DNA of 24,000 bases from Enterococcus mediterraneensis (GTDB lineage Bacteria > Bacillota > Bacilli > Lactobacillales > Enterococcaceae), in assembly GCF_900604485.1 (NCBI RefSeq), contig NZ_UWOP01000001.1, positions 1,544,369-1,568,368 of the forward strand, in the 5' to 3' direction. How positions within the stretch are numbered: the first letter of the stretch is position 1; every line of letters starts with the position of its first letter. Of this stretch, positions 7,740 to 22,491 are shown piece after piece. A program made the position numbers and the translations under genes. The notes beneath the pieces are model-generated. The model searched no databases and was not told where the DNA came from. It saw only the letters and a list, made by a program, of their open reading frames with translations.

Positions 7740-7756
7740 GTTAAGGAGGAACTCTG

Positions 7757-9112
7757 ATGCAAGTATTTCTTAATTGGTTAGAAAGAGTTTTGACACCATT
7801 AGCGAAAGTGATTGGTGAGAACAAGTATCTTGTAGCAATTAGAGATGGTTTTTTACTATCGACACCTTTGTTAATTGTAGGTTCTCTTTTCTTAGTCATT
7901 ACAAATTTTCCGATTCCCCAGTGGAATGATTGGATGAGTGCTATTCTAGGAGACAACTGGGCGAGTATGTTGTCTGTTCCGGCAAGTGCTAGTTTTGATG
8001 TAATGACAATTTTAGCTGTGGCGGGTATTGCTTACAGCTTAGGAAAACAGTTTCACGTTGATGCTATGCAAGCAGCAATTATTTCTCTTGTATCATTCTT
8101 TATTGTGACACCTTATACAACACTGTTCACCCCTGAAGGAAGCCAAGAAATTTATGAAGTTAGCAGCTTGCCTTTACGATGGATGGGATCTAGCGGTTTA
8201 TTTTTAGGGATGGTCGTAGCGTTGATTTCGACTCGTTTATTTGTTGCTATTTTACGTAAAGGTTGGACGATAAAGATGCCGGAGGGGGTTCCACCGACTG
8301 TAGTCAAATCTTTTGAAGCACTGATTCCAAGCTTTATCGTTGTTTGCTTGATGTGCGTATTGAACTGGTTAGCACACTTGACTCCGCTGAATAATTTACA
8401 AGAGATTTTATTTAAGTTCTTACAAACACCTTTGCTGAGTCTCGGTAATACTTTGGGAGCGATGATCATTGCATATCTCTTCTTACATTTTTTCTGGTTT
8501 TTTGGTATTAATGGTTCAAGTGTTGTAGGAGCGGTATTTAATCCAGTTTTACGGGCACTTTCAGTAGAAAATTTAGATGCTTTTAAATCAGGAAATGATA
8601 TTCCAAATATTATCACTGGACAATTCCAAGATATGTTTGCCACGTTTGGTGGAGGCGGTTCCACGTTATCATTGATTATCGTTATGGTCATTTTTTGTAA
8701 AAGTCAACGGATCAAAAAATTATCTCAGCTTTCATTAGTTCCTGGTATCTTCGGCATCAATGAACCAATTATTTTTGGATTGCCTATTGTCTTAAATCCG
8801 ATTATACTTGTTCCATTTGTTTTAGTTCCAACGATCAATATTATTATTTCTTATTTTGCCATGAGTTGGGGGTTAGTGAATTACACCAATGGAATTCAGT
8901 TGCCATGGACTACACCGCCGATTATTTCGGGATTATTAGTTAGTGGTTGGCAAGCAGCAGTACTTCAGGCAATTCTGATTCCTTTAGGGATGCTGATTTA
9001 CTATCCATTTATAAAGGTTATGGATGATCAATATATCAAAGAAGAGAAAGAAGCTTCGGAAAAAGTTGAAGAAGAAATTAATTTTGATGACTTCAACTTT
9101 GATGAATTATAG
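7757..9112 (+). CDS. PTS EIIC permease, lactose/cellobiose (Lac) family
   Basis: Polytopic membrane protein with IKMPEGVPPTV and GINEPIIFGLPIVLNP motifs. SD is TAAGGAGG. It has an acidic C-terminal tail. Confidence 0.95.
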   Translation: MQVFLNWLERVLTPLAKVIGENKYLVAIRDGFLLSTPLLIVGSLFLVITNFPIPQWNDWMSAILGDNWASMLSVPASASFDVMTILAVAGIAYSLGKQFHVDAMQAAIISLVSFFIVTPYTTLFTPEGSQEIYEVSSLPLRWMGSSGLFLGMVVALISTRLFVAILRKGWTIKMPEGVPPTVVKSFEALIPSFIVVCLMCVLNWLAHLTPLNNLQEILFKFLQTPLLSLGNTLGAMIIAYLFLHFFWFFGINGSSVVGAVFNPVLRALSVENLDAFKSGNDIPNIITGQFQDMFATFGGGGSTLSLIIVMVIFCKSQRIKKLSQLSLVPGIFGINEPIIFGLPIVLNPIILVPFVLVPTINIIISYFAMSWGLVNYTNGIQLPWTTPPIISGLLVSGWQAAVLQAILIPLGMLIYYPFIKVMDDQYIKEEKEASEKVEEEINFDDFNFDEL

Positions 9113-9122
9113 AGGAAATATA

Positions 9123-9638
9123 ATGAAAAAAATTGTGCTGATTTTGAATCATGTTCAAGCGGGATTTGGAAGTGACGAAAATTCAACTATGCCGCCTGGT
9201 GGGAAGAATGCCATTATAGGTCCTGGTCAGATATTAAATCCTCTATTTAAAGAGCATGATGCAGAAATAGTTGCCACATTATATTGTGGTGATCAATACT
9301 ATTTGGAAAATTCCCAAGAGGTAAATAAAAAGTTTATCGGTTTCGTAAAGAAAAATGGAATAGATGCTGTTTTATGTGGTCCTGCGATGCATTATCCAAA
9401 ATTTGGTGAGATGGCAGCAAGATTAGCCGCTGCTTTTCAAAAGTATGATGTACCTGCTGTAGCCGCCATGTCTATTGAAAATCCGGCAGTGGCACAATTT
9501 CGTGATCAAATTTGCATAGTCGAGATGCCTAAAAAAGGCGGGATCGGTTTGAATGATTCTTTTAAGCACATGGCTTTGATTACAGCTAAAAAAGCACACA
9601 ATCAAAGTATCGATGAATTTAAAAAATATGTGTTTTAA
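9123..9638 (+). CDS. Stand-alone protein resembling the N-terminal domain of glycine/sarcosine/betaine reductase component B (GrdB-like; no selenocysteine)
   Basis: MKKIVLILNHVQAGFGSDE..PPGG...IIGPG...AEIVATLYCGD.Y...N follows the N-terminal pattern I recall for GrdB proteins. The ORF stops after 171 aa. I placed the start at ATG 9123 behind AGAGGAAAT, not at the tracked 9024, which overlaps the EIIC gene. Confidence 0.65.
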   Translation: MKKIVLILNHVQAGFGSDENSTMPPGGKNAIIGPGQILNPLFKEHDAEIVATLYCGDQYYLENSQEVNKKFIGFVKKNGIDAVLCGPAMHYPKFGEMAARLAAAFQKYDVPAVAAMSIENPAVAQFRDQICIVEMPKKGGIGLNDSFKHMALITAKKAHNQSIDEFKKYVF

Positions 9639-9646
9639 AATTTTGA

Positions 9647-9676
9647 AAACTGTTCATTTCCAAATGAACAGTTTTT
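9647..9676 (+). terminator. Intrinsic terminator ending island 1
   Basis: AAAACTGTTCATTT pairs with AAATGAACAGTTTT and is followed by a T-run. Confidence 0.8.
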
Positions 9677-9728
9677 ATTTTTGTCATCTCAATGTATACT
9701 AGAACTATCTTTTTAAGGCTGGTGTACA

Positions 9729-10328
9729 ATGAAAGAACGTTCTAGAAAAAATCAAATCTTGCAGTTTTTACCGATCGTCGGCTTGCTGTTTTTCTTTGGT
9801 CTGGCGATTTATGGCAAGTATATAGGAATCTTTAGCTCCACGCATTCACTGCAAGTCTTTATTCGCCAGTTTGGTAGTTGCGCAGTATTGGTTTTTATTC
9901 TTTTGCAAGTGATCCAAGTTATCGTGCCGATTTTGCCGGGAGGAATCTCAACAGTCGCTGGATTAGTGCTGTTTGGTCCCTTCCTAGGTATCCTATATAG
10001 CTACATTGGGTTAGTTATCGGTGCCATCATCGGTTTTTTACTGATTCGAAAATATGGGGTCGGGCTAGCCAAACTATTCCTATCTCCTAAGAAATTTCAG
10101 CAATTTCAAAGCATAGTGGAAAATAATCAAAAAACCATCAAGCGTTTCTTGATCATCACGCTCCTTATTCCGTTTGCCCCTGATGACCTAATTTGTTTGG
10201 CTGCAGGATTAACGACGATTTCATTTAAAGATTATTTGAAGATCCTCTTGTTTTTCAAACCATGGTCGATTGCGATCTACGGATTGTTGATGCTGTATTT
10301 GTTTAACAAAGTCGAAGCATTTTTGTGA
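9729..10328 (+). CDS. TVP38/TMEM64 (DedA-related, VTT-domain) membrane protein
   Basis: Five to six hydrophobic segments, with LPGG..S and the FAPDDLICLAAGLT signature typical of the family. Confidence 0.8.
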   Translation: MKERSRKNQILQFLPIVGLLFFFGLAIYGKYIGIFSSTHSLQVFIRQFGSCAVLVFILLQVIQVIVPILPGGISTVAGLVLFGPFLGILYSYIGLVIGAIIGFLLIRKYGVGLAKLFLSPKKFQQFQSIVENNQKTIKRFLIITLLIPFAPDDLICLAAGLTTISFKDYLKILLFFKPWSIAIYGLLMLYLFNKVEAFL

Positions 10329-10354
10329 TCGTTGTATAGTTTCAGACAGATTTT

Positions 10355-10382
10355 TTGCCAAAAAATCATTGTTGGCTATACT
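10355..10382 (+). promoter_or_regulatory. SigmaA promoter for the OsmC-family gene
   Basis: TTGCCA (10355-10360), a 16-nt spacer and TATACT (10377-10382). Confidence 0.5.
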
Positions 10383-10408
10383 TAAAAGAAAAGGCAAGGG
10401 GGAGTATT

Positions 10409-10804
10409 ATGATCGAAAGACATTTAGATTTAGACGCAGATAAAGAAGGAATGTACAGTACAACTCATAAAGGCAATCATGTACGTATCGGGCACGGGGA
10501 TGTTGATATTGCACCAAGCGAATTACTAGCGACTGCGATTTCAGGATGCAGTTATGGTGTATTGCGGACGATTTTAGACAATCGACAAATCACTTATGAT
10601 GATATCCATGTTGACGTTGACTGGTTGATGGAAGATAAAAAACCAAATATCGTCACTGAAGTCAGTGTTCATTTTAAAATCAAAAATCCATCTGCGGATA
10701 TCGAAGTTCTAGGTCGTGCATTGAACCAAACGATTAAAAACTGCACGATTATCCAATCCGTAAAATCAGCGATCAAGATCGATGAAAAACTGACCGTTAT
10801 CTAA
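10409..10804 (+). CDS. OsmC/Ohr-family protein (putative peroxiredoxin-like)
   Basis: About 131 aa with two cysteines in the usual OsmC contexts (AISGCSYGV and IKNCTIIQS). I placed the start at ATG 10409 behind AGGGGGAG rather than at the tracked 10355. Confidence 0.75.
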   Translation: MIERHLDLDADKEGMYSTTHKGNHVRIGHGDVDIAPSELLATAISGCSYGVLRTILDNRQITYDDIHVDVDWLMEDKKPNIVTEVSVHFKIKNPSADIEVLGRALNQTIKNCTIIQSVKSAIKIDEKLTVI

Positions 10805-10913
10805 ACTGACTTGCTACTGCTTATTACACAATATCCATCTTTACATACTGACTGGCTTTAATGATTAAAGAGAAGATGCTGGTTGGAACATCTGCTTCGC
10901 AAAGAAAAATTTA

Positions 10914-10943
10914 TTGGCATATCATTCGGAAATATGGTAGAGT
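10914..10943 (+). promoter_or_regulatory. SigmaA promoter with extended -10, driving the orphan unit below
   Basis: TTGGCA (10914-10919), an 18-nt spacer and TGgTAGAGT (10935-10943). An A/T-rich tract lies upstream. Confidence 0.45.
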
Positions 10944-10949
10944 AAGTGT

Positions 10950-11121
10950 CATGCGATGAGCCGAAAAGGCTAGACTTGTTCTAGTCCTTTCAACCAACGG
11001 CACATGAGCTTGCTCACCTGCCGGATTTGCAGGGTGTCGGAACAGACTTTTGTGGAGAAGGGCTGTTCTGCCAGAGATGGTATTGGACTGAAGCAACGGA
11101 ATATATTCCGTTGCTTTTTTT
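10950..11121 (+). ncRNA. Candidate small RNA or cis-regulatory leader of about 170 nt (family not recognised)
   Basis: It is bounded by the promoter above and a strong terminator. It is hairpin-dense: GCC-GAAAA-GGC, CTAGA-cttgt-TCTAG, GGCAcaTGAGcttgCTCAccTGCC, CCTGC-N7-GCAGG and GAACAG-N18-CTGTTC. No ORF in it has an SD. Confidence 0.4.
11091..11121 (+). terminator. Strong intrinsic terminator
   Basis: AAGCAACGGAA (11091-11101), loop TATA, TTCCGTTGCTT (11106-11116), with a T-run to 11121. Confidence 0.85.
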
Positions 11122-11209
11122 ATTTCAAAAAATTTTGATTTTTATGTTTCACGAGACAGAAAGTATCCATTTAGATAAAAAAATTCATTTTAAGATCATT
11201 GATTTGTTT

Positions 11210-11238
11210 TTGCAAACTGATTTTGTAAATGGTATTCT
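11210..11238 (+). promoter_or_regulatory. SigmaA promoter (extended -10) for the island-2 GntR gene
   Basis: TTGCAA (11210-11215), a 17-nt spacer and TGgTATTCT (11230-11238). It overlaps TGTAAAT, which resembles the TGTAAAC operator half-site at 12046. Confidence 0.5.
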
Positions 11239-11269
11239 GTCCATAATGAATGATGAGAAAGGTGACAGT

Positions 11270-11971
11270 ATGAAAAGAAATCGTGTCCTCTATTTAGAAG
11301 TAGCAGAAAAATTAAAAGCAGATATATTTTCTGGAAAATACCCTGTGGGAACGATGTTGCCGACTGAAACAGAATTAGAGCAGATTTTTGACGTTAGCAA
11401 GATCACTGTGCGTAAAGCAATCGAGTTATTGGCTGCAGACGAGTATGTTGAAAAGAAGAGCGGAAAAGGTACAACCGTTTTAAGTGATCGACCATACAAT
11501 AAATTATCTAAAGCGGCGAGTTTTACACAAATATTAGAAAAGTCCCATCTTACCGTACAAAAAAAGTTACTGGCTCTTGATAAAATGATGCCTGACAGAA
11601 ATTCTCTATTATTTGGATTGTTTGGAAAAGAATGTATCCACTTTCAGCGGATGTACCTTTTAGAAAACCAACCTTATATTCTTTTTGATCATTATTTGCC
11701 TGCTGAATTTTCAGACGTTGACGAAATAGTGTTTGATAAAGAGTCTTTATATCGAATTATTCATCAAAAGGGATTTGAGATCCAATCGTTCTCAGATGAT
11801 TTTGCTGCTGTTCATTTGGATACAGCGCAGCAAGATTTATTGCAAACGAAAGAAACGATCGCGATGCAGCGCATACGCAAGTCGATTGACAGAAGCGGGA
11901 AAGTCGTGGAGTACTCTGAAGCGATTTATAACACTGCCCAACATCCTTACCATATTGAATATGAAGTGTGA
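11270..11971 (+). CDS. GntR-family transcriptional regulator, HutC subfamily
   Basis: wHTH reads MLPTETELEQIFDVSKITVRKAIELLAADEYVEKKSGKGTTV. I placed the start at ATG 11270 behind GAGAAAGGTGA. The tracked 11027 start would run through a terminator and a promoter. Confidence 0.9.
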   Translation: MKRNRVLYLEVAEKLKADIFSGKYPVGTMLPTETELEQIFDVSKITVRKAIELLAADEYVEKKSGKGTTVLSDRPYNKLSKAASFTQILEKSHLTVQKKLLALDKMMPDRNSLLFGLFGKECIHFQRMYLLENQPYILFDHYLPAEFSDVDEIVFDKESLYRIIHQKGFEIQSFSDDFAAVHLDTAQQDLLQTKETIAMQRIRKSIDRSGKVVEYSEAIYNTAQHPYHIEYEV

Positions 11972-12003
11972 TCATTCTATGAAAAAGATGACCACACTTT
12001 TTC

Positions 12004-12067
12004 GAAAAGCGTTTACATTATAATGTTATTATGTTACTATGCAGGTGTAAACATTATAATATTATAA
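12004..12067 (+). promoter_or_regulatory. Island-2 operon promoter with AT-rich palindromic operators and a cre-like box
   Basis: -35 TTTACA (12012-12017), a 17-nt spacer and TGtTACTAT (12032-12040). Palindromes are ACATTATAATGT (12015-12026) and TTATAATATTATAA (12054-12067). ACATTATAAT is a direct repeat at 12015 and 12051. GTTTACA (12011) and TGTAAAC (12046) form an inverted pair. GAAAAGCGTTTACA (12004-12017) matches cre at 12 of 14 positions. Confidence 0.55.
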
Positions 12068-12081
12068 GCGGAGGCGGAAAT

Positions 12082-13419
12082 ATGGACAAATTTGTAGGGG
12101 TCATTGAGCAGAAGATCATGCCTGTTGCAAATAAAATCGGAACACAGCGACACATGACAGCAATCAGAAAAGGGATCATTGCGACAATGCCTTTGACGAT
12201 CGTGGGGTCATTCTTCACCATTTTACTAAACTTTCCAATTGAATCAGTAGCAGCAGTAATCGAACCTTATCGCGAAGTATTAGATATTCCATTTCGTTAT
12301 ACAGTAGGTATTTTGGCATTATACGCGACATTCGGTATTGCTTCATCTTTAGCAAAAAGTTACAGATTGGACTCATTAACTGCAGGTATTTTAGCACTTA
12401 TGTCATTTTTAGTTACAGCTGCACCACCTTTAAGAGTATTAGAAAATGTTGATAATGTTATTGATGCAGGATGTTACATGAATATTGCAAATTTAGGATC
12501 GGGATCTTTATTTGGTTCTATTGTGACTGCCATTATATCTGTTGAGATTTATCGCTTTTTTATTGAGAAAAAAATAACAATAAAAATGCCTGATGGTGTG
12601 CCGCCTGAAGTAAGCAACTCATTTCTAGCATTGATTCCCGGTGCTGTGATTTTGATTTTCTTCTGGGCGATCCGTCATCTTCTGGGATTTGATATCAATG
12701 GCTTTTTGAGTAATCTGTTGATGCCGTTGAAGGATGTTTTGGCCGGCAATAGTTTATTCGGTGGTCTGTTAACTGTATTTTTGATTTGTTTCTTCTGGGT
12801 ATTAGGGATTCACGGACCTGCGATCATGGGACCTGTGATTCGTCCATTCTGGGATATTTCCATTGCGGAAAATATGGATGCTTTTCAAGCCGGAACTAGC
12901 GCGCATAATCTACCTAATATCTTCACTGAACAATTTTTACAATGGTTTGTTTGGATCGGCGGCGCTGGTACAACACTTGCATTAGTCGTCTTGTTCATGT
13001 TTTCAAAATCGAAATATTTAAAGAGTTTAGGTCGGCTATCTATTTTGCCAGGATTGTTCAATATCAATGAACCAGTCATTTTTGGGGCACCGATCGTTAT
13101 GAATCCTGTTTTAGGTATCCCATTTATCGTTGCACCGTTGATTACAACGACACTTTCTTATTTCTTGACGATTTCCGGCGTCGTGCCAATGATGGCGGCA
13201 AGACTTGGTTTTGCAATGCCGGCACCGATCGCAGCATGGATGAGTACAAATTGGAGTGTAGCTGCAGGTATTCTTGTCATTGTCAATTTCTTGATCACTT
13301 TGGGAATCTACTATCCATTCTTCAAAGTATTTGAAAAACAACAACTTGCTCGCGAAGCTGCTGAGCGTGAAGCAGAAGCAGCAGCTGCTTCAGAGAAAAT
13401 CTCTGTCGTTCAAAACTAA
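12082..13419 (+). CDS. PTS EIIC permease, lactose/cellobiose (Lac) family; no cognate EIIB or EIIA nearby
   Basis: MDKFVGVIEQKIMPVANKIG N-terminus, with IKMPDGVPPEV and NINEPVIFGAPIVMNP motifs. I placed the start at ATG 12082, 7 nt after GGAGG (12070-12074), not at the tracked 12031. Confidence 0.95.
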   Translation: MDKFVGVIEQKIMPVANKIGTQRHMTAIRKGIIATMPLTIVGSFFTILLNFPIESVAAVIEPYREVLDIPFRYTVGILALYATFGIASSLAKSYRLDSLTAGILALMSFLVTAAPPLRVLENVDNVIDAGCYMNIANLGSGSLFGSIVTAIISVEIYRFFIEKKITIKMPDGVPPEVSNSFLALIPGAVILIFFWAIRHLLGFDINGFLSNLLMPLKDVLAGNSLFGGLLTVFLICFFWVLGIHGPAIMGPVIRPFWDISIAENMDAFQAGTSAHNLPNIFTEQFLQWFVWIGGAGTTLALVVLFMFSKSKYLKSLGRLSILPGLFNINEPVIFGAPIVMNPVLGIPFIVAPLITTTLSYFLTISGVVPMMAARLGFAMPAPIAAWMSTNWSVAAGILVIVNFLITLGIYYPFFKVFEKQQLAREAAEREAEAAAASEKISVVQN

Positions 13420-13466
13420 GTAAAAGGAGGGAGGATAGTCGTTGTACTATCCTCTTTGGTGATACT

Positions 13467-13730
13467 ATGACATTCGTTTATTTACTGCTTCTCTTTTTTG
13501 GAAGCCACATTTATTTAGAGAAAAAAGGATTGCCGCAGTTCATTGATAATAGTAAATTGCGGTACGTGCTTGTTGGTTCGATCGGTGTGATCATCCTATC
13601 GATCGTTCTTGGAACAGTATTGTGGATCGGCGCATTTTGTGCAATGACAGCTACGGTTTTATCAAGTTCGATCATTGCCTATAAATTCCGATCAAAATTC
13701 GAAAAGATGGAACGAGGGAAAAGTGTATGA
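13467..13730 (+). CDS. Small hydrophobic protein (87 aa, 2-3 predicted TM segments), function unknown
   Basis: The ORF is flanked on both sides by operon genes. Its stop overlaps the next start (ATGA at 13727-13730). The SD is weak (GGTGA). Its hydrophobic character is clear. Confidence 0.45.
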   Translation: MTFVYLLLLFFGSHIYLEKKGLPQFIDNSKLRYVLVGSIGVIILSIVLGTVLWIGAFCAMTATVLSSSIIAYKFRSKFEKMERGKSV

Positions 13731-14815
13731 AAAGAAATCTAGGTGTTTCTGTGTACCCAGACCACAGTGATATGGAGAAAGACAAAGCCTATTTGTCCCT
13801 AGCAAAAAAATATGGTTTCAGCCGAATCTTCATGAGTATGCTGGAAGTAACAGATGGCAAAGAAGCAGTGAAAAAAAAGTTTAAGGAACTGATTTTTTTC
13901 GCTAAGGATCTTGGTTATAAGACGATTTTAGATGTGGCACCAAATATTTTTTCAGAGTTGGGGATTTCTTATGATGATCTAACTTTCTTTCATGAACTGG
14001 GAGCAGACGGGATTCGTTTGGATCTTGGCTTTGATGGCAATAAAGAAGCCATGCTGACCTATAACCCTTATGGCTTGGCGGTAGAATTAAACATGAGTAA
14101 CGATGTTGCTTATTTGGATAATATTTTGACTTATCAAGCCAATACGCCATTTCTTTACGGGTGTCATAACTTTTATCCGCAAGAAGGAACAGCACTGCCA
14201 TATGGATTTTTTGAAAAATGCAGTCAGCGTTTTAAAAAGCAAGGAATACGAACAGCAGCGTTTATTACTTCCCAATCTGGAAAAATCGGTCCTTGGGATA
14301 TCAACGATGGGTTGCCAACTTTGGAAATGCACCGACATTTGCCAGTGGAAGCTGCGGCAAAACATTTATTTGCTACAAATTTGATTGACGACGTAATTAT
14401 TGGAAACGCTTATGCTTCTGAAGAAGAATTGAAAGCATTAGGAACGATAGATCGTTATCAAACCGAATTTACCATTGAATTTGTTGAAGAAGCAAACTCT
14501 GTCGAAAAAGCCATCGTTTTGAATGAACAACATTTTCGCAGAGGTGATATTACGGATCAGGTGATTCGTTCAACAGAGGTCCGTAAAAAATATAAAAATC
14601 AAGAAAATGCCCCACATGATAATGAGAAGGAATTTCAAGTAGGAGATGTGGTAATCGGAAACGATCAGTTCGGCAAATACAAAAATGAACTGCAAATCGT
14701 ACTTGTTCCTCATCGTGATCCTCGGAAAAACAAGGTCGGACAAATTACAAAAAATGAATTGATTTTGCTACCTTTTATCCACCCATGGACAAAATTTAAA
14801 TTTACAGAGAAGTAG
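13727..14815 (+). CDS. DUF871-family protein (family of MupG 6-phospho-N-acetylmuramidase): putative 6-phospho-glycosidase
   Basis: N-terminus MKRNLGVSVYPDHSDMEKDKAYLSLAKKYGFSRIFMSMLEV matches the pattern I know for DUF871 proteins. Length is about 360 aa. It sits next to a PTS EIIC, as is typical for the family. Confidence 0.8.
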   Translation: MKRNLGVSVYPDHSDMEKDKAYLSLAKKYGFSRIFMSMLEVTDGKEAVKKKFKELIFFAKDLGYKTILDVAPNIFSELGISYDDLTFFHELGADGIRLDLGFDGNKEAMLTYNPYGLAVELNMSNDVAYLDNILTYQANTPFLYGCHNFYPQEGTALPYGFFEKCSQRFKKQGIRTAAFITSQSGKIGPWDINDGLPTLEMHRHLPVEAAAKHLFATNLIDDVIIGNAYASEEELKALGTIDRYQTEFTIEFVEEANSVEKAIVLNEQHFRRGDITDQVIRSTEVRKKYKNQENAPHDNEKEFQVGDVVIGNDQFGKYKNELQIVLVPHRDPRKNKVGQITKNELILLPFIHPWTKFKFTEK

Positions 14816-14823
14816 GAATGAAT

Positions 14824-15930
14824 ATGTTAGACTTAATTATACGTAATGCTAAAGAATTGAATCAGGAACCTGTGGAAATCGGTATTTTAGATGGAAAAAT
14901 CCAGCAGATTTCTTCAAAAATCTCTGAAGAAGCAAAAGAGGAAGTTACGCTTTCTGACACGCAGTACCTCTCCGCCGGCTGGATCGACGATCACGTCCAT
15001 TGCTATGAAAAGATGAACCTGTATTATGATTATCCAGATAAGATCGGTGTGTCTAAAGGTGTGACCACAGTGATCGATGCCGGAACGACAGGGGCGGAAA
15101 ATATCGGTGATTTTTATCACATCACTCGGGATAAGAAGACCAATGTCTTTGCGCTATTGAATATCTCTAAATGGGGGATCGTGGAGCAAGATGAACTGGC
15201 TGATTTGACGAAAATCAAGGAAGAAAAAGTAGCACAAGCACTAAGAGATTATCCAGATTTCATCGTAGGGATCAAAGCTCGGATGAGCAAATCTGTTGTT
15301 GGGGAAAATGGGATCACACCGTTAGAACTGGCGAAAAAGATCCAATCGGACAACGAACACCTGCCACTGATGGTGCATATCGGCTCTGCACCACCAGAAT
15401 TGTCTGAAGTACTGGCAAAAATGGAGGCAGGAGATGTCTTGACTCATTGTTTCAATGGTAAAGAAAACGGCATTTTGGATCACGAAACAGATAAGATCAA
15501 AGAGGTTGCTTGGGACGCTTATCGCAAAGGGGTAGTCTTCGATATCGGTCATGGAACCGACAGCTTCAATTTTCACGTAGCAGAAACAGCCTTAAAAGAA
15601 GGAATGAAAGCCCGTTCCATCAGTACAGATATCTACGTGCGCAATCGCAACAATGGACCTGTATTCGATCTGGCCACTACGATGGAAAAATTGCATGTAG
15701 TTGGCTACTCTTGGGAAGAGATTCTCACAAAAGTTACCGCAACACCTGCTGAAAACTTTCATTTAACGACAAAGGGGCAGCTTCAACCAGGATTTGATGC
15801 TGATATCACCATCTTCGAATTGGTGGATGAGGATAAAGAACTGACAGATTCGAATGGCTTTACCCGTGTGACTCATCAACAAATCAAACCGATCAAAACG
15901 ATTATTGGAGGCGTCATTTATGACAATTAG
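14824..15930 (+). CDS. Amidohydrolase/deacetylase-family metallohydrolase
   Basis: Metal-binding GWIDDHVHC (HxH) follows a beta-sandwich-like N-terminus (LDLIIRNAKEL...GILDGKI). ATG 14824 has better SD spacing (AGGA) than the tracked ATG 14818. Either start is possible. Confidence 0.85.
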   Translation: MLDLIIRNAKELNQEPVEIGILDGKIQQISSKISEEAKEEVTLSDTQYLSAGWIDDHVHCYEKMNLYYDYPDKIGVSKGVTTVIDAGTTGAENIGDFYHITRDKKTNVFALLNISKWGIVEQDELADLTKIKEEKVAQALRDYPDFIVGIKARMSKSVVGENGITPLELAKKIQSDNEHLPLMVHIGSAPPELSEVLAKMEAGDVLTHCFNGKENGILDHETDKIKEVAWDAYRKGVVFDIGHGTDSFNFHVAETALKEGMKARSISTDIYVRNRNNGPVFDLATTMEKLHVVGYSWEEILTKVTATPAENFHLTTKGQLQPGFDADITIFELVDEDKELTDSNGFTRVTHQQIKPIKTIIGGVIYDN

Positions 15931-17011
15931 TTATGAAAAATTCGGCTTGAAGGAAGTCATCAATGCTTCCGGACGAATGACGATCTTAGGCGTTTCAAAA
16001 GTTTCGGAAAATGTGTTGGCAGCGCAACGTTTTGGCGGTGAACATTTTTTTGAAATGAGCGAATTGGCGATCAAAACCGGTGCTTATTTAGCTGAACTGC
16101 TCCATGTAGAAGATACGCAGATCGTTTCTTCTGCATCAGCTGGGATCGCTCAGTCTGTGGCGGCATTGATCGGACAAGGAGATCTGTATCATTTGTACCA
16201 TCCTTACGCATCAAGATTTCAAAAACGAGAAATCGTTTTGCCTAAAGGACACAATGTCGATTATGGAACTCCCGTTGAGGTCATGGTGAACCTTGGAGGC
16301 GGGCAAGTGGTGGAAGCCGGCTACGCCAATATGTGCGGGCCAGAGCATCTTGAACAAGTGATCACGGAACAGACCGCGGCTATTTTATATATCAAGAGCC
16401 ATCACACTGTTCAAAAAAGCATGCTGACGGTAGCGGAAGCCGCAGAAGTTGCCAAGAAACATCAATTACCGTTGATCGTAGATGCGGCAGCGGAAGAAGA
16501 TCTGTTCCGTTACATCGAAGCCGGAGCGGATCTGGTGATTTATTCCGGTGCCAAAGCGATCGAAGGGCCAAGTGCTGGTCTGGTCATCGGGAAAAAAGAA
16601 TACGTCGAATGGGTCCGTCTTCAAAGCAAAGGGATCGGTCGGGCGATGAAGATCGGCAAAGATAACATCCTTGGATTTACACAAGCGGTGGAGGACTATT
16701 TGCATCATGGGAGTGAAGACGGCGACTCTATGAAAGCACGTTTGGCACCTTTTGTGACGGCTTTAAATGAGATCTCAGGAATCACTGCCGCTATCGTCCA
16801 AGATGGAGCAGGCCGGGATATCTACCGTGCCAGTGTCAAAGTGACAGGAACCAAAACAGCAAAGGAAGTCATTAACGAGTTGAAGGCTGAAGATCCAGCG
16901 ATCTATACACGGGAATATCAAGCAAACAACGGAATCATCGAATTCGATATCCGTTCTGTCAATCAGGAAGAAATGGAAAAAATCACGAAACGATTACAAG
17001 AAATCATGTAG
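15920..17011 (+). CDS. SelA-like PLP-dependent enzyme, DgaE family (D-glucosaminate-6-phosphate ammonia-lyase-like)
   Basis: INASGRMTILGVS N-terminus and the PLP-lysine motif YSGAKAIEGPSAG. ATG 15920 follows GGAGG (15907-15911) and overlaps the upstream stop by 11 nt. Confidence 0.8.
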   Translation: MTISYEKFGLKEVINASGRMTILGVSKVSENVLAAQRFGGEHFFEMSELAIKTGAYLAELLHVEDTQIVSSASAGIAQSVAALIGQGDLYHLYHPYASRFQKREIVLPKGHNVDYGTPVEVMVNLGGGQVVEAGYANMCGPEHLEQVITEQTAAILYIKSHHTVQKSMLTVAEAAEVAKKHQLPLIVDAAAEEDLFRYIEAGADLVIYSGAKAIEGPSAGLVIGKKEYVEWVRLQSKGIGRAMKIGKDNILGFTQAVEDYLHHGSEDGDSMKARLAPFVTALNEISGITAAIVQDGAGRDIYRASVKVTGTKTAKEVINELKAEDPAIYTREYQANNGIIEFDIRSVNQEEMEKITKRLQEIM

Positions 17012-17024
17012 AGGAGTAGAAAAA

Positions 17025-17765
17025 ATGACATTGACACCTAATTATTTAGAAGATCGGATTTGCTTGAATGTTTTAGCAAATTCTGTAGAAAATGCGAAAG
17101 CATGTTACGAAGCGGCAGAAGGACATGTCGTATTGGGGGTATTGTCCAAAAACTATGACAGCGACGAAGCAGCGATCGAAGACATGAAAAAATATCAGGA
17201 GGCAACCAATAACGCATTATCGGTAGGGTTAGGAGCAGGTGATCCTAATCAAAGCCAAATGGTTTCCCGGATCTCAGGTGTCTTGCAACCGCAACATGTG
17301 AATCAAGTCTTTACCGGTGTAGGAACTTCCCGAGCATTATTAGGACAAAACGAAACCATCATCAACGGGTTGGTCTCACCAACAGGCAAAGTCGGCTATG
17401 TCAATATCGCTACAGGACCGTTGAGCTCTGATGCACCAGAAGCCGTAGTGCCTATCGAAACAGCGATCAAATTGTTAAAAGACATGGGAGGCAGCTCTAT
17501 CAAATATTTCCCAATGAAAGGCTTGGCTCATAAAGAAGAATACCAAGCAGTAGCTGAGGCTTGCGGGAAATATGATTTTTATTTGGAACCAACTGGCGGG
17601 ATCGATTTATCCAACTTTGAAGAAATCGTACAAATCGCTGTAGATGCCGGCGTGAAAAAAATCATTCCTCATGTATACAGCTCGATCATCGATAAAGAGA
17701 CAGGAGACACGAAAGTCGAAGACGTCAAAGCGTTACTGGATATGATGAAAAATACCTTGAAATAA
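17025..17765 (+). CDS. KDGP-aldolase family protein (DgaF-like 2-dehydro-3-deoxy-phosphogluconate aldolase)
   Basis: 246 aa, immediately downstream of the DgaE-like gene as in the Salmonella dgaEF pair. The sequence pattern (LGAGDPNQ..., YFPMKGL, LEPTGGIDL) matches my recollection of this family. The call rests partly on context. Confidence 0.7.
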   Translation: MTLTPNYLEDRICLNVLANSVENAKACYEAAEGHVVLGVLSKNYDSDEAAIEDMKKYQEATNNALSVGLGAGDPNQSQMVSRISGVLQPQHVNQVFTGVGTSRALLGQNETIINGLVSPTGKVGYVNIATGPLSSDAPEAVVPIETAIKLLKDMGGSSIKYFPMKGLAHKEEYQAVAEACGKYDFYLEPTGGIDLSNFEEIVQIAVDAGVKKIIPHVYSSIIDKETGDTKVEDVKALLDMMKNTLK

Positions 17766-17777
17766 AAAGGAGAGCTT

Positions 17778-18788
17778 ATGAAGATTGGGGCATTTGGCGA
17801 AGTTATGCTGCGACTAACGACGCCAGAACATTTATTATTGGAACAAACCCATCATTTGCGAATGGATTTTACCGGAACAGGGGTCAACTTAGTAGCAAAT
17901 CTTGCTTGTTTTGGCTTATCCAGCGCTCTTTTGACAGCGTTGCCGGATAATCGTTTAGGAGACGCCGCTCAAGCCAATTTAAAGAGTCTCGGGATTGATA
18001 CGCAGTTTGTGGTACGGCAGCATCAGCACATGGGATCATATTTTGCAGAGATGGGATTTGGTCCGCGTCCGACGCAAGTGACTTATCAAAACCGCGTCAA
18101 CAGCTCTTTTGGTCTGTCGAAGGCGGCAGATTATGACTTTGCGGCTTTTGCTGCAGCAACGGATCTGATCCACATTTGCGGGATCTCACTCAGTTTGACG
18201 GAAAAAACGGCTGAAGCAGCACTTCAGCTGGCAAAAACAGTTCATGAGCAAGGGAAAAAAGTCTGCTTTGATTTCAATTTCCGTCCCAGCTTGAATCAGG
18301 AAGAAGGCAAAAAAGAACAGATGAAAACTCGCTATGAAGCGATTCTGCCTTACTGTTCCATCGTCTTCGGTTCGATTCGTGATCTGACGGATCTGCTGCA
18401 AAGAGCGGATCGTCAAATGCTAAAGACACCGCAAGATGAGGTCAGTGTCATCCAAGCATTTATGAAAGAGTACGGCATCGAATGGTTCGCTGGGACTACT
18501 CGTCTGGTAAACGAACAGAAACAGATCAGCGGCTATTTGGTGGCCTCTGATGCGGCTTTTCAAACAGACCCTCAGCCTTTGACGGTGTTGGATCGAATCG
18601 GTGCCGGTGATGCGTATGCAGCAGGAGTCTTGCTGGGGTATGCGGAAAACTGGTCGATCGAACGAACTGCAAACTTTGCGCTGGCGAATTCTCTATTGGC
18701 CCACACTATCCAAGGGGATGTACCGCTGACCACCCGTCAACAAGTAGAGCGATTGTTGACAGATCCTCATACGGATTTGATTCGCTGA
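17778..18788 (+). CDS. PfkB-family sugar/sugar-acid kinase (2-dehydro-3-deoxygluconokinase-like)
   Basis: N-terminus FGEVMLRL..., C-terminal PfkB signature DRIGAGDAYAAG. SD is AAGGAGAG. Length is 336 aa. Confidence 0.85.
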   Translation: MKIGAFGEVMLRLTTPEHLLLEQTHHLRMDFTGTGVNLVANLACFGLSSALLTALPDNRLGDAAQANLKSLGIDTQFVVRQHQHMGSYFAEMGFGPRPTQVTYQNRVNSSFGLSKAADYDFAAFAAATDLIHICGISLSLTEKTAEAALQLAKTVHEQGKKVCFDFNFRPSLNQEEGKKEQMKTRYEAILPYCSIVFGSIRDLTDLLQRADRQMLKTPQDEVSVIQAFMKEYGIEWFAGTTRLVNEQKQISGYLVASDAAFQTDPQPLTVLDRIGAGDAYAAGVLLGYAENWSIERTANFALANSLLAHTIQGDVPLTTRQQVERLLTDPHTDLIR

Positions 18789-18810
18789 AAAAGAATCAAC
18801 AAATAAAAAT

Positions 18811-18860
18811 GCTCCGACAAATTCTGCCTGATAAAGACAGAGTTTGTCGGAGCGTTTTTT
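18811..18860. terminator. Bidirectional intrinsic terminator between the convergent kinase gene and histidine-kinase gene
   Basis: GCTCCGACAAA (18811-18821) pairs with TTTGTCGGAGC (18843-18853). A T-run lies at 18855-18860 and an A/T-run at 18801-18810 on the other side. Confidence 0.8.
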
Positions 18861-18876
18861 GGCTTGATGACGTTTT

Positions 18877-20193
18877 TTAAACCACAGCTTTTGGCAGACG
18901 AATCTGGAAGACGACTCCTCGCGGCTGCCAGTCATGAACGGTGATCTTGCCTTTATGTTCTGTTACGATCTGTTTGGCGATTGCCAGACCTAAACCGTAA
19001 CCGCCAGTCTCTTTGGAACGAGAGCGGTCTTCGCGATAGAATCGCTCGAAGATCTGCTTCTTATCGCTGTCGCTGATGGAAGGCCCGGTGTTTTTGACTT
19101 CGATCAGCCAAGCATCGTTGATGATCTCAGAGTGCAGTAAGATCGTATCTTTTTTGTCGGTATATTTCAGTGCGTTATCTAAAAGGATGACCAAGACCTG
19201 ATGCAATTTTTTTTCGTCAGCTGAAACAGTTCGATCCGCCAGATTTTCCAAAACAAATTGTTTCTCTTCCATTTCTGCGATTTCCTGGAACGGTTTGACC
19301 AATTGCTGGATGAAGTCATTTGGTGTGATCTCGTTTTTTTCGATGATCAGCTGATTGGAATCACTGCGGGCGATGGTCAGCAGATCACTGGTAAGACCCG
19401 TTAGTCGGCGGGTTTCATTCAACGCCTGGGCGATCGTTTCCGATTCTTCTAAAATCGTGCGGTCCGGTCGCGTAAAAAGCCGCTGCAAGCTGTTTTGGAT
19501 GATCGTCAACGGGGTACGCAGTTCATGAGACGCATTTTCCACAAATTCCTGTTGTTTTTGCCAAGCTGCCCAGATCGGCCGCATATTCATTTTTGAAATA
19601 TAGTAGCTCAGTGCGATGGACAGCAGCCAGAAAATCACCATACAGATCACCAAAATCGAACGGAAGGTAGCCATAGAAGAGGCGATCTGGTCGGTATTCG
19701 CTAAAATCTGGATATAAGCGATCTGACTGTCAGCAACATTGGCTTTGATAGTGATGGATCGAAAATTGATTGCGGTGTTATCCTGATCGCCTTTGATCGC
19801 TACCGGGGTGATTTTTTGCAGATTATTTGTATCAAGTGTAAGAGTCTGCAGCTCATTGAAACGTCCGCCTAATGCATCTTTATTCAATATCTCGCCGTCT
19901 TGTGACCACAAAACGATCTGGGTATTGAAACGATTGCCAAGCTGTTTAGCAGAGGGTGAGTTAGTATCAGGCTGTTTTAAAAAGGGATCATTTTGCTGGA
20001 AACGAGCGATTTCCATTTGTAAAAGGTGCTGATCCTGTGTCATTTCCGTCAAAGAAAGATCGGTCTGTCGATACGCCGACTGGTTCAATAGTTGCAAAAT
20101 GATAAAACCTAATAATAGAAACACGATCGCAAAGGCACTGACATTGATCCCGAAAAAATACCAGCGCTGTTTTTTTGACAGTTCTTGATTCAT
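18877..20193 (-). CDS. Sensor histidine kinase (2 TM with extracytoplasmic loop, HAMP, HisKA, HATPase_c)
   Basis: H-box [10 protein letters not shown]-box LLDNALKYT and G-boxes NTGPSI and [14 protein letters not shown]. Two hydrophobic segments flank a loop of about 140 aa. Confidence 0.95.
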
Positions 20194-20873
20194 ACCTGCT
20201 CCTGTTCTTGCAAAATGTAGCCGACATTTCGCAATGTTTTGAAAGCCTGATCCATGCCGCTGGGTTTCAAATGTTTCCGCAGATGGCTCATATAGACTTC
20301 AACGACTGTGATAGTAGTTTCGGAATCAAAACCCCAGATACGATCGAAAATCTGTTCTTTTGTCAGAATGACGCCTTTGTTTTGGATAAAATACAGCAGC
20401 AATTCAAATTCTTTTCCTTGGATCGGCAAACTCTCTCCTTGATAGAGAACTTGATTATTGGCAAGGTTGCAGGAAATCGTTCCAAAGTTCACGGAATTTT
20501 CATCGTATAAGCCCAAGGAACGTTTCAAAAGCGCTTTGACCCGCAAAATCAATTCTTCTCGATAAAAAGGTTTCGTCAAATAGTCATCGGCACCTTTTTC
20601 AAAGCCCTCGATCTTATCTTCTAAACTGTCTTTGGCAGTTAAAATCAAAACCGGTGTCATGATTTTCTTCTGTCGTAATTCTGCCAGTAGTTGATAGCCG
20701 TTTTTCTCCGGCAGCATCAAATCTAAAAGTATCAAATCATAAATACCGCTTTCTGCTTCAAATAACCCTTCTGCACCATCATAGACCTGAACCACCTCGC
20801 CCAAGTCGGAAATGATTTCTTTGATATTGTCTGAGAGGATCTGTTCGTCCTCTACAACTAAAAATTTGATCAT
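20190..20873 (-). CDS. OmpR/PhoB-family response regulator
   Basis: [10 protein letters not shown]..., phospho-acceptor context [10 protein letters not shown] and a C-terminal winged helix ([12 protein letters not shown]). I placed the start at 20873 behind GAGAGGTGA. The stop overlaps the kinase start (ATGA). Confidence 0.95.
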
Positions 20874-20945
20874 GGTCTTCACCTCTCGCTTATCATACCA
20901 TTTATACCATAAACAAAGCTTAAAGATGCAGTCGAAAATTATCAC

Positions 20946-20981
20946 CTGTTTTAAGGTTTGCTTAAGGCTGGCTGTTTAAGC
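20946..20981 (+). promoter_or_regulatory. Direct-repeat boxes in the divergent intergenic region (candidate response-regulator binding site)
   Basis: TTAAGG at 20951 and 20962 (11-bp phasing), and TTAAGC at 20976. The longer repeats are CTGTTTTAAGG (20946-20956) and CTGTTTAAGC (20972-20981). They lie 25-60 nt upstream of the permease ATG. Confidence 0.4.
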
Positions 20982-21006
20982 TTTCAGCAAATGAGGAGGG
21001 ACCATC

Positions 21007-22491
21007 ATGAATTTTTTTAAACGGGCAATGCAAAGCCTTTGGGCAAAAAAAGGTCGCAGTTTGCTGTTGATCGCAGTTTTTGCCGCTATTTTAGTTTTTG
21101 TCTTAGCGGGTTTGACGATCCGCAGCGCGGCAGAGACATCTGTCGAAAATGCCAAGAAAAGTGTAGGCGCAACGGTGACACTTTCCGCGAATCGACAAGC
21201 GATGTTCAATAAAAAGACAGAAAGTGATTCTGAGCAAACAAGCAGCTCTGAAGAAACTCGACCGGATCCCGGCAGTTTTTCTCTGACACCGGTCAATTTA
21301 ACGGATGCTGAAAAAATCGCCGCATTAGCTGGCGTAAAGTCGTATTCTTTTGAAACCAGCGCTTCGGCGGATCAAAGTACTGGTGCAGAACCAATCTCCA
21401 GCGAAGATACCAGCTCTGAATCAGAGGAAACAGAAGGAATGGGCGGACCTGGCGGCAAGATGCAAATGCAAAGCCAAGGGGATTTCCAAATCAAAGGTGT
21501 GTCCAATAGTGAAGATTACAGTGATTTTTCTTCTGGTACGGCAAAACTGATCGACGGGACAGCCATTACAACAGAAGATGAAGGATCTGCCAATGTATTG
21601 ATCGAAAAAGCGTTGGCTGAAGCAAATGAATTAGCAGTAGGTGATACTTTCAAAATCAAAAACAGCGATGACGAAGATGTCGAAGTGACGATCAAAGGGA
21701 TTTATGAAACCAGCGAGACTGGCGACAGCATGGGAATGCGATTTAATTTTATGAACCCTGCCAATACGATCATCGCTTCTTATACCTTTGCTAACAGTTT
21801 GAATGGCGACGATTCTGCCGATACGATCGATTCAGCTGTATATACATTAGAAGATCCGAAAGATATGGAGGACTTTGTTGCAAAAGCTGAAAAACTGATC
21901 GATAAAGAAACATTCAGTCTGCAAACCAATGATCAAATGTATCAGCAAATGCTGCAGCCATTGAACAATGTCGCAAGTTTTGCGAAAAATATCGTGCTGC
22001 TGGTAGCGGCGGCCGGTGTGATCATCTTGACATTGATCGTTATGATGTCGATCCGCGAACGAAAATATGAGATCGGCGTGTTGCTTTCATTAGGTGAAGC
22101 AAGAGCAAAAGTTATCGGACAATTTTTCGTAGAAATCGTCGTCTGCATGATCATCGCGTTAGGGATCGCTGGGGTCAGCGGCAATCTGGTGGGCAATGCA
22201 GTGGGCAATCAGCTATTGTCTCAACAAAGTACGTCTGCTCAAACAGCAGAGGGACAAAATGGACCAGGAGGCCAAGGAATGCCAGGTGCTCAAGGTGAAC
22301 GGGGTCAAGGCAGGGTTGGCAAGATGGCGAATTTGACTGCCAGTCAAGAAGTGAAGGACTTGAACATTTCCGTTAAACCAATGGAGATCGTCAGTCTTGC
22401 CGGTATCGGTCTAGGCATCAGCATGTTTTCAATCTTACTTTCATCAGCTGGCATCTTACGGCTGAATCCGAAAAAAATATTGATTTCTTAG
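21007..22491 (+). CDS. ABC transporter permease, MacB/FtsX type (single FtsX domain with a large extracytoplasmic domain)
   Basis: An N-terminal TM is followed by an external domain of about 290 aa and three C-terminal TMs (SIRERKYEIGVLLSLGE is FtsX-like). It contains low-complexity inserts. SD is GAGGAGGG. Confidence 0.9.
   Translation: MNFFKRAMQSLWAKKGRSLLLIAVFAAILVFVLAGLTIRSAAETSVENAKKSVGATVTLSANRQAMFNKKTESDSEQTSSSEETRPDPGSFSLTPVNLTDAEKIAALAGVKSYSFETSASADQSTGAEPISSEDTSSESEETEGMGGPGGKMQMQSQGDFQIKGVSNSEDYSDFSSGTAKLIDGTAITTEDEGSANVLIEKALAEANELAVGDTFKIKNSDDEDVEVTIKGIYETSETGDSMGMRFNFMNPANTIIASYTFANSLNGDDSADTIDSAVYTLEDPKDMEDFVAKAEKLIDKETFSLQTNDQMYQQMLQPLNNVASFAKNIVLLVAAAGVIILTLIVMMSIRERKYEIGVLLSLGEARAKVIGQFFVEIVVCMIIALGIAGVSGNLVGNAVGNQLLSQQSTSAQTAEGQNGPGGQGMPGAQGERGQGRVGKMANLTASQEVKDLNISVKPMEIVSLAGIGLGISMFSILLSSAGILRLNPKKILIS

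Follow-up and report, generated by a model that had tools for sequence, protein, structure and literature searches.

We found that a 24,000-nucleotide (nt) stretch of the Enterococcus mediterraneensis genome (GCF_900604485.1, NZ_UWOP01000001.1, positions 1,544,369-1,568,368, forward strand), referred to here as the window, carries a repressor-controlled seven-gene operon that would serve the use of a beta-linked disaccharide with an N-acetylated 2-amino-2-deoxy-aldonic acid at its reducing end, most probably chitobionic acid (N-acetylglucosaminyl-beta-1,4-N-acetylglucosaminic acid, GlcNAc-beta-1,4-GlcNAc1A). Taken in full, down to the order of its steps, this model seems to us slightly better than an even bet. 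We hold it likely that the core intermediate is an N-acyl-2-amino-aldonic acid. The more general interpretation, a disaccharide with an N-acetyl-amino-aldonic-acid aglycone, is supported by comparative evidence, with chitobionic acid as the best candidate substrate.

An earlier note on this DNA had assigned the proteins to families from their letters, and all its assignments held in hidden Markov model (HMM) searches and in matches to the Protein Data Bank (PDB): a HutC-type GntR repressor, a lactose/cellobiose-family (Lac) EIIC of the phosphotransferase system (PTS), a GH170 protein, an amidohydrolase, DgaE, DgaF and a PfkB kinase. The amidohydrolase reached 557.6 bits against TIGR03583 (EF_0837/cog3964; cutoff 432), and its closest structure is PDB 2ICS (590 bits), which from its name we take to be Enterococcus faecalis EF0837. 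The HxH motif quoted in the note corresponds to H59/H61, and the metal ligands H59, H61, K153 (carboxylated Lys), H187, H210 and D271 are the same in all 30 homologues compared (36-47% identity). The note had allowed that the 246-aa and 363-aa proteins might fall into unrelated families; homology searches placed them with the DgaF aldolases and the DgaE-family lyases. The lyase contains the expected DgaE-type motif SGAKAIEGPSAG, scored 582.1 bits against TIGR01437 (cutoff 385.3) and is 87% identical to its best named match, an Enterococcus (MULTISPECIES) protein. Its closest structure is the Salmonella D-glucosaminate-6-phosphate (D-glucosaminate-6-P) ammonia-lyase DGL (PDB 7LC0, 298 bits). 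K212, H161/H162 and R303/R331/R345 of the window lyase align with K213, H162/H163 and R301/R332/R346 of DGL, and DGL R226, the proposed alpha-carboxylate ligand, is replaced by Lys. In DGL, the substrate 6-phosphate has been placed at R301, R332 and R346, with H162/H163 involved in proton transfer (PMC9529869). The aldolase exceeds the cutoff of the 2-keto-3-deoxy-6-phosphogluconate (KDPG) aldolase equivalog NF047796 (399.5 bits, cutoff 300), with PDB 3LM7 as closest structure (371 bits). The kinase matches the general PfkB family only and stays below the KdgK equivalog cutoffs (58.2 against 400 and 141.2 against 440 bits); its closest structure is PDB 3KTN (427 bits), presumably an E. faecalis kinase. 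The closest solved structures are structural-genomics entries without assignment, or the Salmonella lyase.

Upstream of these genes, the EIIC belongs to the lactose/cellobiose family (TIGR00410, 389.2 bits, cutoff 236) and falls below the equivalog cutoffs for ChbC (NF007634, 190.9 against 760) and cellobiose EIIC (TIGR00359, 389.2 against 434); no EIIA or EIIB gene was found within the operon. The family previously known as DUF871 is now CAZy family GH170 (PMC12791066), and the window member has both MupG domains. Its closest structure is PDB 1X7F (473 bits), and PDB 2P0O matches at only 111 bits. The surrounding genes do not form a MurP/MurQ/MurR context: the EIIC is of the Lac family, and the window contains no MurQ or RpiR gene. 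In Lactobacillus paracasei, the GH170 protein ChbE and a Lac-type PTS are genetically required for the use of N,N'-diacetylchitobiose (PMC12791066), and for Bacillus coagulans, DUF871 was put forward as a new kind of 6-phospho-beta-glycosidase (PMC6271610).

Between the EIIC and GH170 genes lies an ORF (open reading frame) for an 87-aa membrane peptide without Pfam or NCBIfam match. Homologues at the same position are present in Enterococcus species including E. faecalis, Companilactobacillus and a Clostridium sp., and absent from loci L008 and L010 and from Clostridioides difficile, and the peptide may be a conserved, non-essential EIIC accessory. A small membrane protein of about 80-100 aa was likewise observed between Lac EIIC and GH170 genes in loci L002, L004, L006, L007, L011, L026, L038, L084 and L088, with the motifs LEKKGLP, KLRY and YKYRxKFEKMERG in common.

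The strongest support comes from a comparison of loci. We surveyed 80 loci from different species, anchored on the amidohydrolase (search with an eight-sequence alignment; 10-kb flanks; ORFs called and clustered, neighbours named by Pfam), and used tblastn to score genes as present or absent within 9 kb of the amidohydrolase in 83 loci, including the window, L002 and L003. Of the 78 loci with a called amidohydrolase ORF, 75 had DgaE and 70 had DgaF by ORF clustering; by tblastn the figures were 81/83 and 77/83. Amidohydrolase, DgaE and DgaF are one conserved module, combined with three uptake front ends.

In type A (Enterobacterales, Aeromonas, Vibrionaceae, Enterococcus faecium and others), the order is a PRD/Mga/EIIA2 regulator, a small PRD protein, Gly_rich_SFCGS, DUF4312, DUF4311 and DUF4310, followed by the module, without a kinase. 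The DUF4310/4311/4312/SFCGS set would appear to be a hitherto undescribed sugar-acid permease of the PTS type. Type B, that of the window, has GntR, Lac EIIC, mostly a small ORF, GH170, the module and PfkB, and occurs in several Enterococcus species (a metagenomic Enterococcus has it at a different chromosomal setting), in Companilactobacillus formosensis, in C. difficile and in a Clostridium metagenome-assembled genome (MAG). Type C (the Bacillus cereus group, Paenibacillus, Staphylococcus nepalensis, Gracilibacillus and others) consists of the module, PfkB and GntR. A GntP-family permease gene lies inside the operon in eight type-C loci of Bacillus, Paenibacillus and Staphylococcus, and other type-C loci have an ABC sugar transporter and a two-component system. 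Since GntP belongs to the gluconate-permease family, and since a secreted 7-bladed beta-propeller lactonase with a signal peptide is encoded after DgaF in 15 enterobacterial type-A loci, the substrate of the module appears to be an aldonic acid.

The kinase follows the mode of delivery. By tblastn, it was absent from all 41 loci with DUF431x genes only, present in 14/14 loci with GH170 (among them the hybrid L009, which combines DUF431x genes, GH170, module and kinase) and present in 25 of the 28 with neither. This distribution ties the kinase to an acid that would reach the cytoplasm unphosphorylated. The earlier note had reasoned that the acid must be the aglycone, would be released unphosphorylated and would need a deacetylase and a kinase of its own; the kinase distribution, the GntP/lactonase linkage and the operator shared by types B and C (see below) lend this reasoning independent comparative support.

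The E. faecalis cluster EF0829-EF0839 is a fusion of types A and B: PRD regulator, small PRD protein, SFCGS, DUF4312, DUF4311, DUF4310, Lac EIIC, small ORF, GH170, EF0837 and the start of the lyase gene. The E. faecalis contigs stop inside EF0838, so that the 3' end of the cluster, including a probable downstream kinase gene, lies outside the data. Type A was assigned to L005, L012-L045, L075-L082, L086 and L090, and in these loci the DUF431x/SFCGS set always precedes the module; Aeromonas is represented by L031, and by L036 through its amidohydrolase match only, with no ORF map. The lowest GH170 identity among type-B loci, 29%, is taken to be that of L060.

A second line of evidence comes from the control region. 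A promoter scan of the 110-nt spacer between the GntR and EIIC genes returned a promoter-like site with a -35 TTTACA at 12012, a 17-nt spacing and a TG-extended -10 TACTAT at 12035. Two copies of the palindrome AACATTATAATGTT, each with one mismatch, overlap this site. No further copy with at most one mismatch was found in the whole window, where 0.32 would be expected by chance; by eye, the spacer otherwise showed only a weak cre-like match with two mismatches. The 14-bp palindrome, in the general form AACATTATAA(T/C)GTT, recurs just upstream of EIIC in 12 of 14 type-B loci. Almost every type-C locus has it upstream of the amidohydrolase gene, frequently in two copies separated by about 46 bp, and it is also present upstream of the EIIB gene in C. 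difficile and of EIIC in E. faecalis. As a pattern for whole-genome searches, the type B/C operator can be written AACATTATAAYGTT. It was not found in type-A loci, save one copy with one mismatch in L078, a locus scored as type A that nevertheless has a Lac EIIC and GntR, nor in L058, which has a different shared motif. GntR orthologues with 30-78% identity to the window GntR flank type-B and type-C operons, a range of divergence equal to that of the enzymes. Because of the shared operator and of regulators that diverge as the enzymes do, we regard types B and C as one orthologous regulon. Such a regulon would imply one effector and one core pathway, and would tie the EIIC/GH170 front end to the GntP-fed aldonate pathway. 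The window protein itself has the GntR winged helix-turn-helix and UTRA domains of a GntR/HutC repressor, with a palindrome at its target promoter as putative operator.

The eight co-directional ORFs were all recovered at the coordinates of the earlier note, with genes overlapping at 13727 (ATGA) and by 11 nt at 15920-15930. Its description of the other gaps as 2-13 nt applies to the enzyme genes (2, 13 and 12 nt) and not to the spacers between GntR and EIIC (110 nt) and between EIIC and the 87-aa ORF (47 nt). Likewise, the terminator that it placed at the end of the unit is real (z = -8.35) but probably does not serve all eight genes alone, as the regulator gene has a hairpin and U5 of its own. 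A hairpin and T-run after the GntR gene were also seen, by eye and unfolded, in 6 of 7 other type-B loci examined and were not evident in L011. Given the hairpin/U5 and the promoter-like site in the 110-nt spacer, we prefer to see the regulator gene as probably transcribed on its own and the remaining seven genes as the operon. The EIIC ORF opens at 12031, and the ATG at 12082 is favoured by 444-aa orthologues. At least 13 genomes from the genera Enterococcus, Companilactobacillus, Clostridioides and Clostridium have the gene order too, which argues that the eight-gene arrangement is not due to chance.

Based on these findings, we propose the following pathway. The HutC-type GntR would sit on the palindromes over the promoter until released by a pathway intermediate. 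By analogy with its family, the EIIC, with EIIA and EIIB supplied from elsewhere, would import the disaccharide and phosphorylate O6 of the non-reducing N-acetylglucosamine (GlcNAc). GH170 would then yield GlcNAc-6-phosphate (GlcNAc-6-P), passed on to NagA/NagB, and free GlcNAc1A, which the PfkB kinase may phosphorylate at O6 and the EF_0837-type amidohydrolase may deacetylate. The DgaE-family lyase is predicted to convert D-glucosaminate-6-P to KDPG and NH3, a reaction shown for the Salmonella homologue, whose proposed key residues are conserved; DgaF, assigned at the level of an equivalog HMM, would split KDPG into pyruvate and glyceraldehyde-3-phosphate.

The order that we favour would be kinase, deacetylase, lyase and aldolase. 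The PLP lysine, the His-His pair and the Arg triad are invariant in 14/14 type-B, 23 type-C and 36 type-A lyases as well as in the E. faecalis dga-type lyase. The kinase therefore probably acts before the lyase, since the triad would be expected to decay in types B and C if the substrate were unphosphorylated. That the kinase would also precede the deacetylase is suggested by E. faecalis, where one amidohydrolase would serve both the PTS-like monomer route and the EIIC/GH170 route. The earlier note had held that the order of the steps could not be deduced from the sequence. This is too strict: the order can be deduced in part, as the conserved triad argues for the kinase acting ahead of the lyase.

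The same enzymes could nonetheless act in another sequence, in which the lyase would convert unphosphorylated D-glucosaminate to 2-keto-3-deoxygluconate (KDG) and the PfkB protein would come last as a KDG kinase, in the manner of the marine OngB/OngC/KdgK route. The best NCBIfam and PDB matches of the kinase are indeed KDG/KDGal kinases, a likeness that would suit an unphosphorylated lyase substrate, and the marine pathway phosphorylates at the KDG stage only (PMC9537276). We nevertheless consider this order unlikely, because the proposed 6-phosphate triad is as invariant in the kinase-bearing types B and C as in PTS-fed loci, the KdgK equivalog scores lie far under their cutoffs (58/400 and 141/440), and one E. 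faecalis lyase would serve both the PTS-like and the GH170 routes. A different sugar within the same logic is, in our view, rather unlikely. The glycone or the N-acyl-amino-aldonic acid could be another one (Gal- or Man-beta-1,4-GlcNAc1A, glycosides of GalNAc1A, or GlcN-GlcN1A from chitosan), with oxidases, periplasmic dehydrogenases or host oxidants as its source in place of chitin lytic polysaccharide monooxygenases (LPMOs). The sequence does not fix the glycone, three Paenibacillus loci have a GH130 beta-mannoside phosphorylase and an ABC transporter beside the module, L060 has a MurP-like EIIBC, a divergent GH170 and an RpiR regulator ahead of it, and type B occurs in gut hosts, such as C. 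difficile. On the other hand, among natural disaccharides of this kind none is nearly as well documented as chitobionic acid (PMC13325158; 10.1101/2021.03.24.436902), GH170 has its precedent in chitobiose use (PMC12791066), the E. faecalis and Gracilibacillus contexts point to chitin, and a gluco configuration is favoured because DgaF passes the KDPG-aldolase equivalog cutoff.

The operon might also be a composite, with EIIC and GH170 serving plain chitobiose or another beta-disaccharide and the other genes serving monomeric GlcNAc1A or glucosaminate taken up by a transporter encoded elsewhere. L. paracasei ChbE does act in the use of plain chitobiose (PMC12791066), and the E. faecalis cluster has a second uptake system (DUF431x) beside EIIC and GH170. 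This is quite improbable, as the window operon encodes no other transporter and neither nagA nor nagB, its seven genes share one promoter/operator, and GH170 and kinase occur together in 14/14 loci, including the DUF431x hybrid L009. As for peptidoglycan recycling, GH170 would be the MupG 6-phospho-N-acetylmuramidase acting on MurNAc-6P-GlcNAc and the downstream genes would be unrelated. The Pfam family is named after MupG, and a MurP/MupG/MurR-like set adjoins the module in L060. Nevertheless, we rejected this reading on gene content and think it very improbable: the EIIC is of the Lac family and not a glucose-family MurP, there is no MurQ etherase, the GH170 protein matches 1X7F of B. cereus at 473 bits, against only 111 bits for 2P0O, and this reading would not account for why GH170 is so tightly coupled to the module in different genera. 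An Amadori pathway of the glucoselysine/gfr type was set aside, as no SIS-domain deglycase and no mannose-family PTS were present.

Returning to chitobionic acid and its proposed route, several further points weigh against it. To our knowledge, the only biochemically established GH170 specificity is for MurNAc-6P-GlcNAc, and cog3964 enzymes have reportedly shown so far only the hydrolysis of acetyl-(R)-mandelate-type esters. The lyase remains below the cutoff of the D-glucosaminate-6-P ammonia-lyase equivalog (373.1 against 600 bits), which makes it a family member of uncertified specificity, and the phosphate role of the DGL Arg triad comes from manual docking (PMC9529869). The link to chitin in the genomic flanks is limited as well. 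The earlier note had proposed to look for co-occurrence with AA10 LPMO and GH18 chitinase genes. In the local flanks of 84 loci, regular-expression scans for GH18, GH20, GH3, AA10, NagA and ROK motifs, which are crude and may miss divergent members, returned a single match each for AA10 and GH20 and a single ROK-like one; no GH18 motif turned up. One LPMO among about 40 type-B and type-C loci is near chance expectation, and so is one GH20. Local co-localisation of the module with chitinases is, consequently, not general.

Where chitin-related genes do occur, their arrangement is consistent with the proposed substrate. In L058, from Gracilibacillus timonensis, an island at 8338-19663 comprises GntR, divergent Lac-type EIIB/EIIA/EIIC, a GntR, a YdjC/ChbG-type deacetylase, the module with the kinase, a convergent ABC transporter and an AA10-CBM5/12 LPMO. 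Two copies of the motif GGTATAGACNTCTA lie in this 21-kb locus, one preceding the amidohydrolase gene by 43 nt and the other the LPMO gene by 27 nt; none was found in the other 89 loci. A chance origin is unlikely for a 13-mer common to two short promoter regions of L058, although the motif was spotted by eye ahead of testing, so that the statistic overstates the case. In the Clostridium MAG, a secreted GH20 gene lies 6 kb from the type-B operon. E. faecalis reportedly secretes EfChi18A and the C1-oxidising EfAA10A. Soluble LPMO products are trimmed no further than chitobionic acid by SmCHB, a GH20 chitobiase used in LPMO assays (PMC13325158; 10.1101/2021.03.24.436902), and a dedicated route for the oxidised dimer would therefore make biological sense.

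The chemistry and the end enzymes of this pathway are already known; not described so far are the front end (PTS, GH170, cog3964 deacetylase and kinase), the regulon and its distribution. The Salmonella dga operon (mannose-family PTS DgaABCD, DgaE and DgaF) has a homologous lyase and aldolase. The window operon differs from it by adding a disaccharide EIIC, GH170, a deacetylase and a kinase, and its predicted substrate is N-acetylated, glycosylated and released unphosphorylated, whereas dga takes free glucosaminate under sigma-54 control. Neither the window nor any type-B locus has a homologue of a mannose-family EIIABCD or of a sigma-54 LevR-type activator close to the module. A Salmonella-like dga operon was seen in E. 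faecalis (L001, 4568-11854; sigma-54 LevR-type activator, Man-family EIIABCD, DgaE and DgaF), and its DgaE is 83% identical to that of the window. E. faecalis has two lyase/aldolase pairs, in different uptake contexts. Prior studies found ef_0839 and ef_2975 to be identical (PMC2912369) and treated EF0838, EF0839 and EF2975 as unknowns (PMC7701990, PMC2912369).

The marine gammaproteobacterial ong pathway (GH20 OngA, SSS transporter OngIT, D-aminoacylase OngB, deaminase OngC and KdgK; PMC9537276) is repressor-controlled as well and deacetylates and deaminates GlcNAc1A, with carbon entering the KDPG aldolase branch, as predicted for the window. By the descriptions in that paper, however, the enzymes appear analogous rather than homologous (OngB is a D-aminoacylase relative, OngC a D-amino-acid-deaminase-like PLP enzyme). 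The marine dimer is split in the periplasm by GH20, whereas PTS import and a phospho-glycosidase are predicted here, and phosphorylation comes last, on KDG, whereas it is predicted to precede the lyase in the window. Homologues of OngB and OngC were sought in an Aeromonas study, and none was convincing; a type-A module is present in Aeromonas.

The L. paracasei chb cluster (ChbABC, DUF3284 ChbD and GH170 ChbE; PMC12791066) shares with the window a Lac-family EIIC, a GH170 enzyme and a small accessory gene between the transporter and hydrolase genes. In the window, by contrast, the accessory is the unrelated 87-aa membrane peptide, the operon has no EIIA or EIIB, and it is extended by the amidohydrolase, DgaE, DgaF and kinase that chb lacks. 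The TIGRFAM cluster "EF_0829-EF_0839 / AHA_3910-3917", which equals type A, contains the same amidohydrolase-DgaE-DgaF module, and the window proteins score above cutoff for TIGR03583, TIGR01437 and TIGR03581. Type A combines the module with a PRD regulator and DUF431x/SFCGS, and the window with GntR, Lac EIIC, GH170 and a kinase. The earlier note knew of no PTS/DUF871-based version in Firmicutes, and our literature search agrees: no functional study was found of EF0829-EF0840, of DUF4310-4312/SFCGS, of N-acetylglucosaminate or of a PTS route for chitobionic acid or oxidised chitin products.

Through LPMOs, a considerable part of crystalline chitin ends up as C1-oxidised oligomers, and the sole described pathway for the use of chitobionic acid known to us is that of marine Gammaproteobacteria. 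The window operon would represent a complete gene set for a PTS and phospho-glycosidase route, in which each gene can be tested. It occurs in enterococci and C. difficile, and in E. faecalis, with its well-studied LPMO and chitinase, it is joined to a second uptake system. The analysis supplies a defined candidate operator for a new GntR regulon, and it proposes functions for EF_0837/cog3964 amidohydrolases, for non-Salmonella DgaE homologues, for the EF0829-EF0839 cluster and for DUF4310/4311/4312/SFCGS. More tentatively, and with somewhat less than an even chance of holding together with its consequences, types A, B and C may constitute a pathway that is widespread in Bacillota and Enterobacterales and serves N-acetyl-D-glucosaminate and its glycosides. 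In that case, the window version would be the PTS/GH170 route for chitobionic acid, N-acetyl-D-glucosaminate(-6-P) would be the physiological substrate of cog3964 amidohydrolases, GH170 would gain a 6'-phospho-chitobionate hydrolase activity, DUF4310/4311/4312/SFCGS would be a new PTS-type permease for a sugar acid, and producers of chitin LPMOs, such as E. faecalis, could eat their own oxidised products.

Table 1. Features of the regulator gene and the seven-gene operon, in window coordinates.
Feature	Position	Strand	Remarks
HutC-type GntR repressor gene	11270..11971	+	233 aa; Pfam GntR 66 bits, UTRA 66 bits
Hairpin and U5 directly 3' of the regulator gene, probable (possibly leaky) terminator	11963..12005	+	dG -14.6 kcal/mol, z = -4.1
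Putative operon promoter and two operator palindromes (12014-12027, 12050-12063)	12012..12063	+	promoter scan, palindrome counts
Lactose/cellobiose-family PTS EIIC gene	12082..13419	+	445 aa; PF02378 207 bits, TIGR00410 389 bits
Intercistronic hairpin, EIIC / 87-aa ORF	13428..13457	+	dG -17.9 kcal/mol, z = -3.4
87-aa membrane peptide ORF	13467..13730	+	conserved; without known family
GH170 (DUF871/MupG-family) putative 6-phospho-beta-glycosidase gene	13727..14815	+	362 aa; MupG_N 330 bits, MupG_C 130 bits
EF_0837-type (cog3964) binuclear-metal amidohydrolase gene, predicted de-N-acetylase	14818..15930	+	370 aa; TIGR03583 558 bits
DgaE-family PLP ammonia-lyase gene	15920..17011	+	363 aa; TIGR01437 582 bits
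DgaF-type KDPG aldolase gene	17025..17765	+	246 aa; PF07071 364 bits, NF047796 399.5 bits
PfkB-family sugar(-acid) kinase gene	17778..18788	+	336 aa; PF00294 109 bits
Strong bidirectional intrinsic terminator	about 18805..18860	.	dG -37.4 kcal/mol, z = -8.35

The terminator at 18805-18860 has an A-run upstream and a U-run downstream, and it probably also serves the convergent histidine-kinase gene for this reason. That gene (18877-20193, minus strand) and a response regulator gene (20190-20945, minus strand) encode an OmpR-type two-component system within a set spanning 18877-23165, convergent to the operon. On the plus strand, these genes are followed by a 494-aa membrane protein, whose orthologue in L002 has MacB_PCD and FtsX domains, and by an ABC ATPase; the arrangement is kept in L002 and L003. 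The set may be a module for the sensing and efflux of peptide antibiotics.

Upstream, the window contains a match to Ref68 (Enterococcus sRNA 68 / Lacto-3 RNA) at 10952-11060 on the plus strand (Rfam 54.9 bits, gathering score 44). It lies between the OsmC and GntR genes, is followed by a strong terminator at 11090-11117, and its sequence is kept upstream of the GntR gene in L002. A second GntR/UTRA-controlled operon, at 4299-9638 on the plus strand, encodes an M20 peptidase, an Asparaginase_2 protein of the glycosylasparaginase/isoaspartyl-peptidase type, Lac-family EIIB and EIIC, and a 170-aa ORF that covers only the N-terminal half of GrdB (PF07355 positions 3-164 of 347). Its EIIB is the sole one in the window, and its gene content suggests PTS uptake of a glycosyl-asparagine or glycopeptide-like compound.

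Among the surveyed loci, L060 (Paenibacillus pabuli) has, at about 6000-14000, what by inspection is a glucose-family (MurP-like) PTS protein, with a divergent GH170 and an RpiR regulator before the module. In L047, L055 and L057, from three Paenibacillus species, the module stands beside a GH130 beta-mannoside phosphorylase, an ABC transporter and, by inspection, an AraC-type regulator.

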